Shown here: positions 2,974-18,913 of the stretch, piece by piece
Layout of the letters: the number at the start of each line of letters is the position of its first letter
Position numbering within the stretch: the first letter of the stretch is position 1
NCBI GenBank assembly: GCA_020148025.1
Contig: JAHCRH010000003.1
Coordinates: forward strand, 1 to 57,773
Length of the DNA: 57,773 nt
Source: Patescibacteria group bacterium
Lineage (GTDB): Bacteria > Patescibacteriota > Minisyncoccia > Minisyncoccales > JAHCRE01
Direction: 5' to 3'
Notes under the pieces: model-generated
Seen by the model: the letters and a program-made list of their open reading frames with translations, nothing else
Database searches by the model: none
Told to the model about the DNA's origin: nothing
Program-made: the position numbers and the translations under genes

Positions 2974-3086
2974 GTCGCGGCACGCGACGGTCGCTTCCGC
3001 GACCGCGCTAACACCGCTCCTTAAAACCCCTCGGTTTTAATCTTTCCGCCACGGGAAAACACTCAGTTTTCCCGACCCCTTTCTAA
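2974..3086 (+). mobile_element. ~113 nt multi-hairpin repeat (MITE-like), copy 1
   Basis: Close copy at 18784-18897; four hairpins; hpf start region duplicated upstream. Confidence 0.75.
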
Positions 3087-3097
3087 TTTTTATTTTT

Positions 3098-3544
3098 ATG
3101 AAAATCGTCATAAAAACTAAAAACGTAGAATTAACCCAAGCTCTTAAAAAATATATTCAAGAAAAATTCAATTCACTTGAAAAATTTTTGCAAATTTTTC
3201 AAGAAGAAAAATATTTTAATCATTTCTTTGGAAAGGGAAAACCAAGAGTTGAGCTCTGGGTAGAGATCGGGAAGGAAACTTTACATCATCAAAAAGGACC
3301 ATTCTTTTGGGCAGAATGCCAGATGAGATTTCCTGGCAAAAGTCTGAGGGCAACTGCTCGTTTAAAGGATTTAAAGTTAGCAATAGTTGAAGTCAAAGAC
3401 GAATTACAGCGACAACTAAAAAAATACAAAGAAAAAATAACAACTAAAGATAAAAGAAAACAAAGAGTTTTTAAAAAGACATTGAAGATTTCTCCCTCAG
3501 CCAGGTTTTATAGAAAAGGGAGGATAAGAGAAGAAGGGGTTTAA
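3098..3544 (+). CDS. hpf: Ribosome hibernation factor HPF/RaiA
   Basis: MKIVIKTKNVELTQALKKYIQEK N-terminus, AIVEVKDELQRQLKKYK. Confidence 0.88.
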   Translation: MKIVIKTKNVELTQALKKYIQEKFNSLEKFLQIFQEEKYFNHFFGKGKPRVELWVEIGKETLHHQKGPFFWAECQMRFPGKSLRATARLKDLKLAIVEVKDELQRQLKKYKEKITTKDKRKQRVFKKTLKISPSARFYRKGRIREEGV

Positions 3545-9150: not shown

Positions 9151-10113
9151 ATGAAAACATTTGTAGATAAGTTAATGGATGCGATCCAAGAAAAACAGAG
9201 CATTCTCTGTGTAGGACTTGACCCGCAAGTAAGATATATTCCAGAGCATATCTTAGAACAGGGATACGAGATGACAAAAGATCCGTTGAGCCTCTTTGAA
9301 CCAGCTGCCCGAGCATTCGTTATTTTCTTTGAAGATATTATTAAAGCTACTGCTCCATTTGCAGCAATTGCAAAACCTCAAATGGCTTTCTATGAGGCCT
9401 ATAAGCATTGGGGCGTGTGGGCTTTCGAAGAGATAGTAAAGCTTTGCAGGAGACACGACCTTTTAGTATTAGAGGACGCAAAACGTAGTGATGGTGGCGA
9501 CACAGCAAAAGCTTATGCAGCAGGACATCTAGGAAAAGTGGATGTATGGGATCCGGTCAAATCTGAAATAGTCAAAAGACCGTCTTTCGATGTTGATGCA
9601 ATGACTGTGATGCCAGGGATTGGCACATCTTGTCTATCTCCGTTCGTAGAGGTAGTAAAAGAATTTGGTAAAGGAATTTTTGTTGTCGACAAGACATCCT
9701 TTAGACCAAATTCTGAAGTGGAACAATTGGTAACGAAAACCGGACGCAAGGTCTGGGAAGAGACAGCGCTATTAGTGAAGCAATGGAGCGAAGGGTGCGA
9801 AGGAGAAAGTGGCATAAATAACATTGGTGTTGTGATGGGTGCTACATATCCTGAGGAAGCGGTAACAATGAGAGAACTTCTTCCTAACTGTTTCTTTTTG
9901 GTTCCGGGATACGGAGCTCAAGGTGGAGGTGCTGATGGAGCAGTAAAAGGTGGCAGAGTGATAGTAAATTCTTCACGAGGTATTGACTATGCTTTCTTAA
10001 GAAAATTCAAATGCGATCCCAAAGATTTCGCTCAAGCAGCAGAAAAATCAGCCAAATTCGCAAGAGACGATTTGAATCAGGCCCTAAAGCGAGCTGGAAA
10101 AATTCCTTGGTAA
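9151..10113 (+). CDS. pyrF: Orotidine-5'-phosphate decarboxylase
   Basis: LCVGLDP, KPQMAFYE, DAKRSD, VMGAT, LVPGYGAQGG, VNSSRGI. Confidence 0.95.
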   Translation: MKTFVDKLMDAIQEKQSILCVGLDPQVRYIPEHILEQGYEMTKDPLSLFEPAARAFVIFFEDIIKATAPFAAIAKPQMAFYEAYKHWGVWAFEEIVKLCRRHDLLVLEDAKRSDGGDTAKAYAAGHLGKVDVWDPVKSEIVKRPSFDVDAMTVMPGIGTSCLSPFVEVVKEFGKGIFVVDKTSFRPNSEVEQLVTKTGRKVWEETALLVKQWSEGCEGESGINNIGVVMGATYPEEAVTMRELLPNCFFLVPGYGAQGGGADGAVKGGRVIVNSSRGIDYAFLRKFKCDPKDFAQAAEKSAKFARDDLNQALKRAGKIPW

Positions 10114-10133
10114 TTAGATAGGAGGAGAAGGTA

Positions 10134-10847
10134 ATGAACATAGAAACAGCAAGAAAAACATTAGGTTTAGAGGTAAAACTCATCGCCTTCGAAGACGTAT
10201 TTGCTTGGTGCGATGCCATCTGGATCTATCGGGGATTTGAGGGCGAACCTCACGCCCTTTTAGCTTCCGGGAAACACAGCGATGGCTATATCAATTTGAA
10301 TGCAGTTCTTCAGTTTCCGAATCTCTGTGCAGTTTTAGCCAAAGATTTGATCAAAAGGTTAGAGAAACATGGAATAACTACAGGAAATGTGGATGCAGTA
10401 GTCTCATCGAGTTTTGCCGCTCTTACCTTGGGGCAAGAGGTAGCTAGACGAATGGAAGCAATGTTTGTCTTCACAGAAAAAGAAGAAAAAAAGCAAAAAT
10501 GGACCGGAAGATTTGAACTCCCTAAAGGTACAAGAATCTTGCAAGTTGAAGAACTCATTACAACCTTAGGAACTACTAGAAAAGTCAGAGAAGCAGTTTT
10601 GAATAGCAATCCCCAAGTAGAATTCATTAAACTCGACGGAAAGATAGTTGTAGCTACCGTTTTCTACCGACCCGACAATCTGGCAAGACCTGAACCCGAT
10701 TATCAGATAATCCCGTTGATTCAAAAAGAGATTCATAATTGGTCTCCAGAAGAATGCCCACTTTGCAAGAAAGGATCTTCGGCTCTCAAGCCAAAACCAA
10801 ACTGGCAAAGATTTCTTGAGTATCAAAGAAGATTTCATGGCCCCTGA
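10134..10847 (+). CDS. pyrE: Orotate phosphoribosyltransferase-like protein (divergent)
   Basis: HALLASGKHSDGY, PRPP loop variant VEELITTLGT, WSPEECPLCK; directly after pyrF. Confidence 0.82.
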   Translation: MNIETARKTLGLEVKLIAFEDVFAWCDAIWIYRGFEGEPHALLASGKHSDGYINLNAVLQFPNLCAVLAKDLIKRLEKHGITTGNVDAVVSSSFAALTLGQEVARRMEAMFVFTEKEEKKQKWTGRFELPKGTRILQVEELITTLGTTRKVREAVLNSNPQVEFIKLDGKIVVATVFYRPDNLARPEPDYQIIPLIQKEIHNWSPEECPLCKKGSSALKPKPNWQRFLEYQRRFHGP

Positions 10848-10886: not shown

Positions 10887-10952
10887 ACCCACTTTTGTGG
10901 GTTTTTTATTTAAATAAAAAAATCCCGCCCTTCATTCAATTAGTTAGGCGGG
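10887..10952. terminator. Back-to-back terminators for pyrE (+) and the RT gene (-)
   Basis: ACCCAC/GTGGGT plus T run on +; CCCGCC/GGCGGG plus T run on -. Confidence 0.7.
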
Positions 10953-11840
10953 TTGGTTTTTGAAAGCCAAATATGGCTTTTTGATTTGAGGTGGTAATTC
11001 GTTTCCGTAAATCGGTTTTAGAGAGGCAATGAAGCCTTCGATTTTTCGTGTTAGATATTCTCTGGCAAAAGAATTAGTTTCAAGAGCAGTTCTATGGATT
11101 ATTCCTCGCCATTTTCTTATGGTCTTTTTGGGCAAAGATATTCTTCCTTTACCATCTACTCGGATTCCAGTAATTAATGGTGCACCATTTCGACAATCGA
11201 ATTGTCTGATTTTCTTTGGATTTACTTTGAACCCGAATTCTTCAAGACATTGAAAAATCTTTTCTTGTATTTCAGATTTCAAAGGTCCAGGGCCTGAAAT
11301 GACAAAGTTATCAACGTAACAAGTAATATTATAACCTCGAGGACAAATAATCCAGAGTTTTCTGAATAACCCACTTTCAGTTATCGCTAGATAAAACAGA
11401 AATGGTGATGTCGGTGCTCCTTGAGGTAAAACTTGCCTGAAAGTCACTAGCTTTATTATTAAATCTAGGAGAGTTAAAGGCTCTTCTTTGAAGTAATCGG
11501 TGATTTTGGTTTGGTCAGAGATCTTTTTCCTTAGGATGTTTTTTAATTTAGAGATATTCACTGAGGGAAAGGCATTTTCGAGATCGAAGACAAAAATGAA
11601 ACGAGAACCAGAATGAGATTTCGCATGACGAACATAGGAACCGGAGCGCAGGCCGTGAATACTTCCATAATGTGTTCTCCAGATCTTTTTAAAAAACCGA
11701 AGGATTTTTCTTTGAATTTTCTCTAATTCGGGCGAGGGAATGAATAGAGTTCGAAAACCACCTCTTTTTTTGCGAATTCTAGTTTCAGTGTATTCATTAG
11801 CTAAGGGTAAGGCTTTAATCAATTCTTTCTTATCTAACAT
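10944..11840 (-). CDS. Retron-like reverse transcriptase
   Basis: KKRGGFRTL..P, HAKSH (NAxxH-like), FDLENAFPSV, LPQGAPTSP, YVDN (YxDD variant), GFKVNPKK, ITG (VTG-like). Confidence 0.9.
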   Translation of the reverse strand: MLDKKELIKALPLANEYTETRIRKKRGGFRTLFIPSPELEKIQRKILRFFKKIWRTHYGSIHGLRSGSYVRHAKSHSGSRFIFVFDLENAFPSVNISKLKNILRKKISDQTKITDYFKEEPLTLLDLIIKLVTFRQVLPQGAPTSPFLFYLAITESGLFRKLWIICPRGYNITCYVDNFVISGPGPLKSEIQEKIFQCLEEFGFKVNPKKIRQFDCRNGAPLITGIRVDGKGRISLPKKTIRKWRGIIHRTALETNSFAREYLTRKIEGFIASLKPIYGNELPPQIKKPYLAFKNQPA

Positions 11841-11865
11841 TTAATCCACCTAATTTTGAAAGGAC

Positions 11866-12018
11866 AATTGGTGGGACCTGTGGGCTACTCGAATGGTCAA
11901 ACGACAAGGACCGGATTTCCTACCAGCTGGCAGCTTCTGCCAACCGCCCACCTAGGGTTGGAACTACCTGCGACTAGTCAGCGACGGGTGGGTCTCTCTA
12001 GCCCGGTTGCCCCCAATT
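11866..12018 (-). ncRNA. RT-associated structured RNA (msr-msd-like)
   Basis: GC-rich segment between promoter and RT start; ends pair (AATTGG..GGGCTA / TAGCCC..CCAATT); internal hairpins. Confidence 0.75.
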
Positions 12019-12019
12019 T

Positions 12020-12078
12020 ATTATAGGATAATGATTTGCAATGTCAACCCTTGACAGAATTCCAGAAATTATTAAACT
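12020..12078. promoter_or_regulatory. Divergent sigma70-like promoters
   Basis: Minus strand TTGACA-16 bp-TATAAT (12047 to 12020); plus strand TTGACA at 12051 with TAAACT -10. Confidence 0.7.
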
Positions 12079-12097: not shown

Positions 12098-12346
12098 ATG
12101 GCAGAATCGGAAAAGACTGCAAAGAAATTATTGAAAATGTTAGAAAGAGCTCAAAAGGGTTCTCAGATAGTTATGAAATTCATCAACGAAGGCAAGCTTG
12201 TGCCATCTATAGCTTCTCTCGACGGTACTGCCGAGGATACTAGGATTTATCTCGATATTCCTTGTGAAATTGGGATGATAGCCGAAGGAATCCAAGCAAT
12301 AAAGTTCAGTCCGCACACTTCTGAATTAATCATTAAGTTCGAATAA
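12098..12346 (+). CDS. Hypothetical protein, ~82 aa
   Basis: ORF track 12041-12346; start moved to ATG 12098, downstream of the promoter and GGAG; terminator at about 12390-12421. Confidence 0.65.
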   Translation: MAESEKTAKKLLKMLERAQKGSQIVMKFINEGKLVPSIASLDGTAEDTRIYLDIPCEIGMIAEGIQAIKFSPHTSELIIKFE

Positions 12347-12458: not shown

Positions 12459-13559
12459 ATGGTTAAGATAATTTCTCTTAAAAAAGAGGCTCAAAAAGAA
12501 ATAAAAAAAGCCAAAGATCTAAAAGAATTAGATCAAATTTTTAAGAAGTATTTAGGCAAAAGAGGAAAAATTACTCAAATTTTACGTTCTTTAAAGAAGC
12601 TAAAAAAAGAAACAAGAATTAAGATTGGCAAAGAAGCAAATTTGTTAAAAAAAATTGTTGAGGAGAACATAAGAGAAAAAGCCGAAAAATTAAAAGAAAA
12701 AGCCAGAGCCGAAATTTTGAAAAAAGAGCAGATTGATGTTACCGTCCCTGGCAAAAAAGTTATCCTTGGCCACTTACATCCTTTAACTCAAATTCAAAGA
12801 AAAGTTGAGGAAGTCTTTCAGTCAATGGGATTTTCAGTTGTGGAAGGGCCAGAAATTGAAACTGAGTGGTACAATTTCGATGCTTTGAATATTCCAAAAG
12901 ACCATCCAGCTAGAGATTTTTGGAACACTTTATGGCTAAAAAAAGCGACAGGCGACAGGCGACAAGAGACAAGATTACTTTTGCGAACTCATACTTCGCC
13001 AGTTCAGGTACGTTTCATGGGAAAAAATCCTCCTCCGCTACGTATTATTGTCCCGGGTCGAGTTTTCCGTCACGAAGCCACTGATGCTTCCCATGAAGTG
13101 AATTTTTATCAAATTGAAGGATTGATGGTTGATAAAAATATTTCAGTAGCAAATTTTAAGGCAATAATTCAGAAATTTTTCAAAAAATTTTTTGGAAAAC
13201 CCGCCAGAGGCCCGCTTCGCCCGCGAAGCGAGGCGAGCGAGGCTCGCCAGGGGCGGCCGATTAAAATCAGACTGAGACCAAGTTATTTCCCATTTACTGA
13301 ACCTTCTTTTGAAGTTGATATGACCTGTCTGACTTGTAGAGGAAAAGGCTGCTCAGCTTGTCAAAGAACCGGCTGGATGGAGATGATGGGAGCAGGAATG
13401 GTTCACCCAAATGTTTTTAAGGCAGTTGGTTTAAATCCAAAAGATTGGCAGGGATTCGCCTTTGGAATGGGATTAGACAGACTGGCAATGATGAAGTATA
13501 AAATAAACGATATTAGATTATTTTATTCTGGAGACTTGAGATTTTTAAATCAGTTTTAA
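12459..13559 (+). CDS. pheS: Phenylalanine-tRNA ligase alpha subunit
   Basis: HPARD, LRTHTSPVQ, YFPFTEPS, GFAFGMGLDR. Confidence 0.98.
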   Translation: MVKIISLKKEAQKEIKKAKDLKELDQIFKKYLGKRGKITQILRSLKKLKKETRIKIGKEANLLKKIVEENIREKAEKLKEKARAEILKKEQIDVTVPGKKVILGHLHPLTQIQRKVEEVFQSMGFSVVEGPEIETEWYNFDALNIPKDHPARDFWNTLWLKKATGDRRQETRLLLRTHTSPVQVRFMGKNPPPLRIIVPGRVFRHEATDASHEVNFYQIEGLMVDKNISVANFKAIIQKFFKKFFGKPARGPLRPRSEASEARQGRPIKIRLRPSYFPFTEPSFEVDMTCLTCRGKGCSACQRTGWMEMMGAGMVHPNVFKAVGLNPKDWQGFAFGMGLDRLAMMKYKINDIRLFYSGDLRFLNQF

Positions 13560-18783: not shown

Positions 18784-18897
18784 GTCGCGGCACGCGACAC
18801 TCGCCTTCGGCGAGTGTGCTAACACCGCTCCTTAAAACCTTGCGGTTTTAATCTTTCCACCACGGGGAAACACCCAGTTTTCCCGATCCCTTTCTAA
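18784..18897 (+). mobile_element. ~114 nt multi-hairpin repeat (MITE-like), copy 2
   Basis: Matches 2974-3086 with compensatory stem changes; ATGGCAAAAC before it resembles the nusG start ATGCCAAAAC. Confidence 0.75.
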
Positions 18898-18913
18898 GTT
18901 TTGTCATATAAAT

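Follow-up and report, generated by a model that had tools for sequence, protein, structure and literature searches.

A retron-like reverse transcriptase with YVDN in place of YxDD and a covarying upstream RNA in a Patescibacteria genome

Here we describe a minus-strand locus on contig JAHCRH010000003.1 of a Patescibacteria group bacterium (assembly GCA_020148025.1, positions 1 to 57,773), a stretch of 57,773 nucleotides (nt) that was analysed as a whole and is referred to below as the window. The locus is a two-part operon, in which a promoter, a 148-nt structured RNA, a Shine-Dalgarno (SD) site, a reverse transcriptase (RT) of 298 amino acids (aa) and a terminator follow one another. On sequence grounds, the RT belongs to a divergent retron lineage, its catalytic box reads YVDN instead of YxDD, and the RNA carries covarying end pairing of the kind described for retron noncoding RNAs (ncRNAs). 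On balance, it seems likely that RNA and RT form a two-part retron-like operon, in which the RT would prime from G11998 and copy its own RNA into a short branched cDNA. An earlier note, made from the DNA letters alone, had described the same unit, and every part of it was found, including a promoter with 12/12 matches and the GC-rich RNA; in proposing a new system the note went too far, as the comparisons point to a divergent retron lineage.

All best PADLOC matches of the window RT were retron RT models (RT_VI, 115 bits; RT_III-A, 108; RT_X, 101), and the best NCBIfam match was retron_St85_RT, at 99.8 bits and 1.6e-28, under the cutoff of 235. Relatives of the RT were collected by a word-index search (127 proteins) and by an exhaustive search (60 representatives at E<=1e-30), and 58 of the 127, spread over the identity range of P0001-P0096 and free of near-duplicates and fragments, were aligned. 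When the profile of these 58 members was compared with solved structures, the Ec86 RT came first (5.5e-33), followed by Ec67, Ec83, Ec78 and Kva2, with group II RTs at about 1e-14 and DRT1 at 4.2e-6. In the alignment, NNATPH, YADD and VTG of Ec86 stand opposite HAxxH, YxDx and ITG of the family. According to the excerpted parts of PMC7736814, the hallmarks of retron RTs are a region X reading NAxxH, with the H most conserved, and a region Y reading VTG, with the G most conserved. In the 58 members, region X is HAxxH (A73 in at least 90%, H76 invariant) and region Y is I/V-T/C/V-G with G225 invariant. The retron likeness that the earlier note had seen in HAKSH and ITG of the window RT is borne out by the PADLOC, NCBIfam and structure-profile matches.

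The window RT fits none of the 13 PADLOC retron types. Its best score is 115 bits, and the best E-values across the 58 members are divided among three types (III-A, 1.9e-42; VI, 3.7e-41; II-A, 8.1e-41), while typed RTs among the proteins of the same search reach 328-612 bits on the model of their own type (XII, 503; XIII, 612; III-A, 339 and 328). No domain other than the RT was found in its 298 aa with Pfam. Two other assignments were considered and rejected: a group II intron RT or maturase, with TIGR04416 at 39.5 bits against a cutoff of 300 and no Rfam intron match, and membership of the DRT or UG/Abi RTs, with Drt3b at 15.6 bits against a cutoff of 350 and DRT1 at 4.2e-6 against 1e-33 for retrons.

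We then turned to the altered catalytic box. A FastTree tree was built on 219 of 242 proteins (the other 23 cover less than 80% of the profile columns and were dropped; the reference retron RT set stands outside the tree), and in it the window RT falls into a clade that counts 115 representative RTs. Motif C has as its fourth residue N in 63, G in 42, D in 7, S in 2 and E in 1 of these, compared with D in 86, E in 11, N in 6 and G in 1 of the 104 proteins outside the clade. The first residue of region X likewise separates the two sets, being H in 108 of the 115 and N in 79 of the 104. A sister group of 30 has YADD-type boxes in the members displayed, and seven of the ten proteins nearer the window clade on the tree have no PADLOC match at 1e-45. 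The earlier note had read YVDN in the place of YxDD and had asked whether YxDN is kept in homologues; the reading is confirmed, and N or G is typical of the whole clade. Among the 58 aligned members, D86 of motif A, Y175, D177 and K210 of motif D are invariant, residue 178 varies, and the PQGxPTSP box is invariant or nearly so. Moreover, the ratio of nonsynonymous to synonymous substitution rates (dN/dS) was 0.09-0.37 in seven pairs of clade RT genes, which indicates purifying selection. Taking the clade-wide residue counts together with dN/dS, the second Asp was therefore replaced once, early in the lineage, in a gene that stayed constrained, and YVDN is a lineage trait and not a sequencing error or decay.

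The earlier note had inferred altered chemistry or a non-polymerising ribonucleoprotein role, which in that form finds no support here; on balance, the evidence favours a working polymerase. Polymerases of negative-strand RNA viruses use GDN, and a Ty1 RT mutated at the second Asp reportedly retains polymerase activity in vitro, so that a site with two carboxylates would have precedent. No RT with YxDN or YxDG was found described in the literature, one unrelated preprint on a nematode ERV aside, where supplementary RT tables, which lay outside the scope of the search, may list members of the clade. A different substitution was also noticed outside the window clade: 11 retron-like RTs of about 300 aa, adjacent in the leaf order of the tree, have Y-V/T-D-E for YxDD (P0158, P0160, P0168, P0170, P0171, P0191, P0192, P0198, P0200, P0211 and P0226). 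Nine of the 11 carry HAxxH, and P0198, the one that was scanned, has no PADLOC type match at 1e-45.

The second part of the operon is the RNA. An iterated nhmmer profile seeded with the window RNA found matches in 42 of 161 sources, all on the RT strand and just upstream of the RT. Six of them are the same contig present in two collections, which leaves 36 unique copies, and 26 of these were aligned with MAFFT, blind to structure; L098, L106 and L087 were left out as cut at the 5' end, and L083, L006, L103, L014, L010, L113 and L116 for a poor 5' profile match. Three helices, named P1a, P1b and P4 (Table 1), were assessed on this alignment. Across them, 93.7% of the 583 alignment cells are paired, whereas shifting the 3' partner by 1-3 columns lowers this to 27.7-47.7%; compensatory changes on both sides occur in 15 of the 23 helix pairs, and the covariation score was reached by none of 500 shuffles. 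The ends of the RNA are closed by an interrupted 14-bp stem, of which P1b contributes 8 bp and P1a 6 bp. The a1/a2-like end pairing proposed in the earlier note thus stands, since both parts covary and are conserved in the 26 copies, and the stem that it had written as CGGTTGGCAG/CTGCCAGCTG corresponds to P4, where covariation is strong. P4 is the most conserved element of the RNA and forms in all 26 unconstrained minimum free energy (MFE) folds; it is likely to be the recognition site of the RT.

A covariance model of the upstream RNAs, a further check proposed in the earlier note, was built on P1a, P1b and P4 and gave 38 matches in the 100 sources searched (the other 61, mostly distant, were left out), again all on the RT strand and upstream of the RT. 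It also finds copies that were not in the seed, namely L098, L103/L104, L006/L094, L106, L087 and, in part, L083/L084 and L010. Taken alone, the window RNA has a fold z-score of -0.49, and 65 of 200 shuffles fold as well; because the single sequence folds no better than its shuffles, the evidence for the RNA is comparative and not thermodynamic. RNAalifold on the MAFFT alignment returned only P1a, P4 and a distrusted invariant pairing of 3 bp. No Rfam match lies within the RNA, at gathering threshold or at E<=10, and its 148 nt hold no ATG-started open reading frame (ORF).

Retron ncRNAs have been recognized elsewhere by several hairpins adjoining a retron RT, by an inverted repeat longer than 8 bp and by a G for priming close to the start (PMC10849725), and the window RNA has all of these features, the priming G at sequence level only. 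In addition, the legend of Fig. 2 in PMC7736814, part of the excerpt available, describes 'two opposing G residues' as marking the a1/a2 stem of the retron msr/msd consensus. G11998, which the earlier note had picked out directly after the 5' arm, is conserved there (in the remaining two of the 26 copies it is shifted by one column in the model-based alignment), and G11888 faces it. The stretch between P4 and this opposing G, whose sequence is not alignable among copies, is the only candidate template in the RNA.

Two smaller stems of the earlier note fared less well. GGTC/GACC (11912..11909 with 11898..11895) is present in the MFE fold of the window itself, within a region that is variable and not alignable among copies. 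The pairing CCCACC/GGTGGG comes out best in the window alone, and a different 5' partner is used by relatives. A third hairpin, P3, abutting P4 was not established: a stem of at least 4 bp is available in 24 of the 26 copies, compared with 8-17 of 26 at offset controls, but its 5' partner differs between subgroups.

To relate the RNA to the type of RT beside it, 152 loci with an RT ORF were compared (counts include duplicated contigs). The RNA profile matched beside N-type RTs in 21 loci, G-type in 12, E-type in one and D-type in six. Among the last, L083/L084 have YVDD inside the clade, and L014/L117, L113 and L116 combine NAxxH with YADD or YVDD. The five N or G loci lacking a match all have the RT at a contig end, and every N or G locus with upstream sequence matches. 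With filters off, the covariance model picked up P4 alone in 8 of 16 loci of YADD sister RTs, upstream of the RT (E 0.007-0.72), and two further matches extend over the complete model (E 0.047 and 0.29). The RNA thus predates the loss of the Asp, and one RNA element serving both YADD and YxD[N/G] enzymes argues that both would do the same thing with it.

To look for an effector, all ORFs of at least 60 aa from the window and 22 loci (23 sources) were clustered; only the RT cluster spans more than three loci, and neither a conserved neighbour protein nor a conserved helix-turn-helix (HTH) neighbour was found in these sources. Inspection of 32 loci by eye, 22 of them with at least 500 nt downstream, revealed no recurring downstream ORF family, and the next gene is mostly convergent. 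The earlier note had reported no co-transcribed effector, which agrees with these results and extends to any otherwise conserved one. Effector-less retrons are not new in themselves, since an additional component is present in about 75% of retrons (excerpts of PMC8632793). Neither of the two outcomes that the earlier note had set against its own proposal, namely homologues that all pair YxDD with a standard effector, or an RNA whose structure is not conserved, was encountered.

Two small proteins were considered individually. A type VI-like small protein embedded in the RNA is not present. The 82-aa divergent ORF of the window (12098..12346, plus strand) was rejected as an effector, because homologues were found in just two loci, L082 and L081, whose RTs are the closest; it has no Pfam, PADLOC or NCBIfam match and no usable Atlas hit. 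Small ORFs of 72-93 aa are similarly placed upstream of pheS in several loci, and G001, a genome of the same genus that lacks the RT, has an 80-aa ORF upstream of pheS that resembles the L089 ORF by eye only. Because of this similarly placed ORF in G001, whose homology to the window ORF no tool confirmed, we assign the 82-aa ORF to the pheS side. Separately, locus L103 alone has an 84-aa ORF at 3028-3282 (plus strand), about 220 nt downstream of the RT and on its strand, that by eye resembles an XRE/Cro-type HTH, which recalls the partner of type VI retrons.

In the mechanism that we propose, the RT would bind the conserved P4 and its flanks, the 2'-OH of G11998 would act as primer, and the variable stretch, perhaps with P4, would be copied into a short branched cDNA of about 30-60 nt. 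The active site would retain Asp in motif A and, of the two Asp residues in motif C, the first, with Asn or Gly in place of the second. We further suggest, tentatively and with considerable doubt, that the site works with two catalytic carboxylates and the system without a protein effector, so that the functional unit would consist of the RT, its RNA of 148 nt and a branched cDNA that is very short.

Several points weigh against this mechanism. The node that defines the window clade has a modest support of 0.674 (0.991 for its parent). The second Asp is missing in 108 of the 115 clade RTs, with Gly in 42, and retron RTs are, as a standard, inactivated by mutating YADD, for instance to YAAA in the excerpted text of 10.1101/2025.10.22.683967. 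As the earlier note had remarked, a long msd hairpin is lacking: P4 is a stem of 9 bp and only short stems form in the variable stretch, set against the msd stems of 10-50 bp given in the excerpts of PMC7736814. Another conserved hairpin (11972-11978 with 11997-12003, A3 columns 18-24 with 51-57) involves some of the a1-like arm, and the candidate priming G is paired within it. Of its cells, 80.7% are paired against 18-49% when slid, and one of its pairs switches from A-U to U-A in 10 of 24 copies; the hairpin appears in only 1 of 26 MFE folds, and might be a second conformer, e.g., one adopted after the a2 arm is lost. Finally, several canonical retron clades produce almost no RT-DNA in E. 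coli (PMC10849725), so that retron ancestry is no guarantee that multicopy single-stranded DNA (msDNA) is made.

Part of the same evidence would suit an RT that no longer polymerises and persists as an RNA-binding protein, with the RNA as its partner or as an autoregulatory leader. Loss of the second Asp in nearly the whole clade, in many members to a residue with no side chain, and a candidate template of only 29-46 nt would be expected of such a ribonucleoprotein. Likewise, the RNA is part of the 5' leader in the RT mRNA, ahead of the U-rich tract and the SD site, and the 5' arm is shared with the alternative conserved hairpin in the manner of RNA switches. We nevertheless regard this alternative as unlikely, though it is the most serious one, on the strength of the motif A Asp, the motif C Tyr and first Asp, the motif D Lys and the PQGxPTSP box, all invariant or nearly so, of the low dN/dS, and of the same RNA hairpin serving YADD sister RTs.

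It is improbable that the system is a tripartite retron whose effector is the convergent phosphoribosyltransferase (PRTase)-like gene at 10134..10847, as in type III. Effectors of type III retrons are PRTase-like (PMC7736814, Table 1, within the excerpt), RT_III-A is the second-best PADLOC model of the window RT, and 5 of 28 unique loci have a PRTase homologue close to the RT, with two arrangements represented among them. The gene is also present in 3 of 4 RT-bearing genomes and in 7 of 57 genomes without the RT, although these genomes are kin and allow no valid statistical test. On the other side, the protein matches orotate PRTase families (pyrE_Therm at 91 bits, below cutoff) and follows a pyrF that scores above cutoff (210 bits on TIGR02127, cutoff 110.6), it matches no PADLOC model at E<=0.1, and it is convergent with its own terminator. 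It lies on a contig other than that of the RT in G024 and G032, occurs in seven RT-less genomes, and is absent from 23 of the 28 loci.

A decaying retron remnant, which has lost its effector and is drifting, is a quite improbable explanation. It would account for the lack of an effector, the altered catalytic box and a patchy distribution with loss in the same genus; intact ORFs under purifying selection, a clade of 115 representative RTs, compensatory changes in the RNA, a promoter and terminator that are kept, and adjacency to pheS in 7 of 28 loci speak against it. Least probable of all is a different product made from the RNA in the manner of DRT2, by template jumping into repeated cDNA instead of branched msDNA, which the two-component layout of RT and upstream ncRNA with no effector gene and a GGUAG-like word that in many copies flanks the P3-P4 region on either side could suggest, but which is opposed by the similarity of the RT to retrons (with DRT1 at 4.2e-6 and Drt3b at 0.005), by the retron hallmarks of an a1/a2-like stem with opposing G residues, and by the loss of the flanking word in the L004/L005 subgroup.

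The features of the locus are collected in Table 1.

Table 1. Coordinates of the RNA-RT operon and of the elements of its RNA in the window
Feature	Position	Strand	Details
Sigma-70-type promoter of the RNA-RT operon	12020..12047	-	TTGACA-16-TATAAT, 12/12; -35 at 12047..12042, -10 at 12025..12020
Structured ncRNA, 148 nt, msr/msd-like	11870..12017	-	Covariance model R1, 94.4 bits, E 1.6e-17; nhmmer profile
P1a, outer end-pairing stem	12009..12014 with 11873..11878	-	87.2% of cells paired; double changes in 4/6 pairs; 25/26 MFE folds
P1b, a1/a2-like arms	11999..12006 with 11881..11887	-	91.2% of cells paired; double changes in 6/8 pairs; 22/26 MFE folds
Conserved G just after the a1-like arm	11998	-	24/26 copies; candidate 2'-OH priming (branching) G
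P4 hairpin, 9 bp, 3-nt loop, flanks GGC..GGUAG	11925..11945	-	11945..11937 with 11933..11925; 100% of cells paired; double changes in 5/9 pairs
Variable stretch from P4 to the opposing G	11889..11924	-	29-46 nt, median 34, in 26 copies; sequence not alignable; candidate msd-like template
Invariant G facing G11998, inner end of the a2-like arm	11888	-	26/26 copies
U-rich conserved tract, UUGUYCUUUnAAAA-like	11853..11866	-	Between RNA 3' arm and SD site; conserved alignment columns; all 28 unique loci
SD site AGGTGG	11850..11845	-	Ahead of the RT ORF
Retron-type RT, 298 aa	10944..11840	-	YVDN motif C, HAKSH region X, ITG region Y; Pfam RVT_1, E 2.3e-18
Intrinsic terminator	10916..10952	-	7-bp G+C stem then U7, -12.7 kcal/mol, z -2.45; stem overlaps last RT codons

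The GC content is 0.53-0.59 across 11850-11999, compared with about 0.32-0.40 around it. In 27 of the 28 unique related loci, a promoter with at least 9/12 matches lies 2-7 nt before the start of the covariance model, and the transcript would therefore start at P1a. The U-rich tract may be a leaky terminator that sets the 3' end of the RNA. The tract was also seen at the same place in L001-L017 and L081-L116, and in the distant loci L016 and L017 a G+C hairpin with a U-run stands ahead of the CUUUAACAA word.

A pyrF-pyrE pair lies convergent to the RT, and on the divergent side lies the 82-aa ORF, followed by pheS, a pilin-like gene and pheT. The promoter of the small ORF (10/12, plus strand, 12051..12078) and that of the RNA-RT operon (minus strand) have facing -35 boxes, which form the palindrome TGTCAA-ggg-TTGACA at 12042-12056; this suggests coupled or competing divergent transcription. 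The pyrF-pyrE pair (9151-10847, plus strand) varies as well: no such pair was found at the corresponding locus of the same-genus genome G001, where the order is secA-NYN-(1.1 kb)-pheS-pheT with no pyrF, pyrE or RT, and in the same-family genome G002 another pyrE/pyrF-like pair and winged-helix genes take its place. From the NYN gene to pheS, the interval has the look of a variable spot. Within pheS, an in-frame insert of some 60 nt that is G+C-rich and partly palindromic (13200-13260, plus strand; local GC 0.62) adds about 20 residues that have no counterpart in the same-genus pheS (366 aa against 344 aa), and pheT has a similar Pro/Arg/Gly/Glu-rich patch. Elsewhere in the window, two copies of a 98-nt G+C-richer element, at 2994-3091 and 18805-18902, are 88% identical and about 15.8 kb apart; they have no Rfam match at gathering threshold.

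The source genome, of about 615 kb and 91% complete, has a single copy of the RT. Of 60 other genomes, drawn for the most part from the order, 3 have the RT (E<=1e-20); it was not found in G001, which is also 91% complete, and occurs in none of 400 other genomes sampled from the phylum (E<=1e-40). Related records are titled mostly Patescibacteria or Paceibacterota, with a few bins bearing other labels, and viral contigs contained RT relatives at no more than 31% identity. The RT-RNA lineage is rare, patchy and carried mostly by Patescibacteria records. A housekeeping role was rejected on these order-level and phylum-level counts, and the distribution fits an accessory, defence-like role instead. 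No meaningful flanking repeats were found at the locus, and a mobile or phage origin was set aside. The divergent neighbour upstream is pheS in the 7 of 28 unique loci mentioned above, over 46-71% protein identity, and a pyrE-like gene is near the RT in 5 of 28; part of the lineage therefore kept its locus over deep divergence. In the literature, with supplementary tables outside its scope, no retron lineage of Patescibacteria or the candidate phyla radiation was found described, beyond incidental mentions.

The YxDD box is treated as defining for RT catalysis, and its mutation is a standard negative control. A clade of 115 RTs under purifying selection that has Asn or Gly there, and that keeps the other polymerase motifs and a covarying, template-like RNA, turns this into a testable question, namely whether two carboxylates are enough for an RT to prime and to polymerise, and which metal it would use. 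Moreover, retrons are viewed as tripartite toxin-antitoxin defences, and a lineage that is conserved yet effector-less raises the question of what an RT and its RNA do by themselves. If the two-carboxylate, effector-less proposal were true, the system would be the smallest self-sufficient retron known, and it would represent a natural experiment showing the second Asp of YxDD to be dispensable for RNA-templated, 2'-OH-primed DNA synthesis. At 298 aa and 148 nt, it would also be small enough to be of interest as a scaffold for retron editing, provided that it is active.

When the window system is set beside known ones, three listed retron features are missing: the YxDD box, the long msd hairpin and the effector. 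Its RT also differs from those of typed retrons in scoring 115 bits on the best PADLOC model, against 328-612 for typed RTs. The non-canonical lineages similar to type XI that come from the SPIRE survey (PMC13712802) are alike in having divergent retron RTs in metagenome-assembled genomes and an msr/msd-like RNA, predicted de novo, upstream; they differ, as the excerpted text describes them, in carrying accessory modules (WYL, DnaB_C). Patescibacteria are not named in the main text of that paper, and no altered YxDD appears in the passages covered. DRT2 (UG2) shares the order of a structured ncRNA followed by an RT with no effector ORF, and it uses the RNA as template to assemble a gene, as far as the excerpted account goes; unlike DRT2, with its UG/Abi enzyme, the window has an RT of the retron clade and an RNA with retron-type end pairing.

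Type VI retrons (Retron-Vpa2; 10.1101/2025.10.22.683967, in excerpt) resemble the window system in that RT_VI is the best single PADLOC model for the window RT, and in neither of these non-canonical retrons would msDNA be the constitutive antitoxin. In the type VI system of that excerpt, however, an HTH protein is accompanied by a toxic small protein inside a hybrid RNA of about 470 nt, whereas the window RNA has 148 nt and no ATG ORF; no conserved HTH gene was found in the 23 sources, and RT_VI is not the best model across the 58-member family. Compared with canonical retrons such as Retron-Eco1/Ec86 (type II-A3), the window has no effector gene, motif C is YxD[N/G] instead of YADD, region X is HAxxH instead of NAxxH, and a long msd hairpin is missing. 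Nevertheless, the two share the same RT sequence clade with regions X and Y present, and in both the ncRNA lies directly upstream on the same strand, with an a1/a2-like stem, a G next to the end of its 5' arm and a second G opposite.

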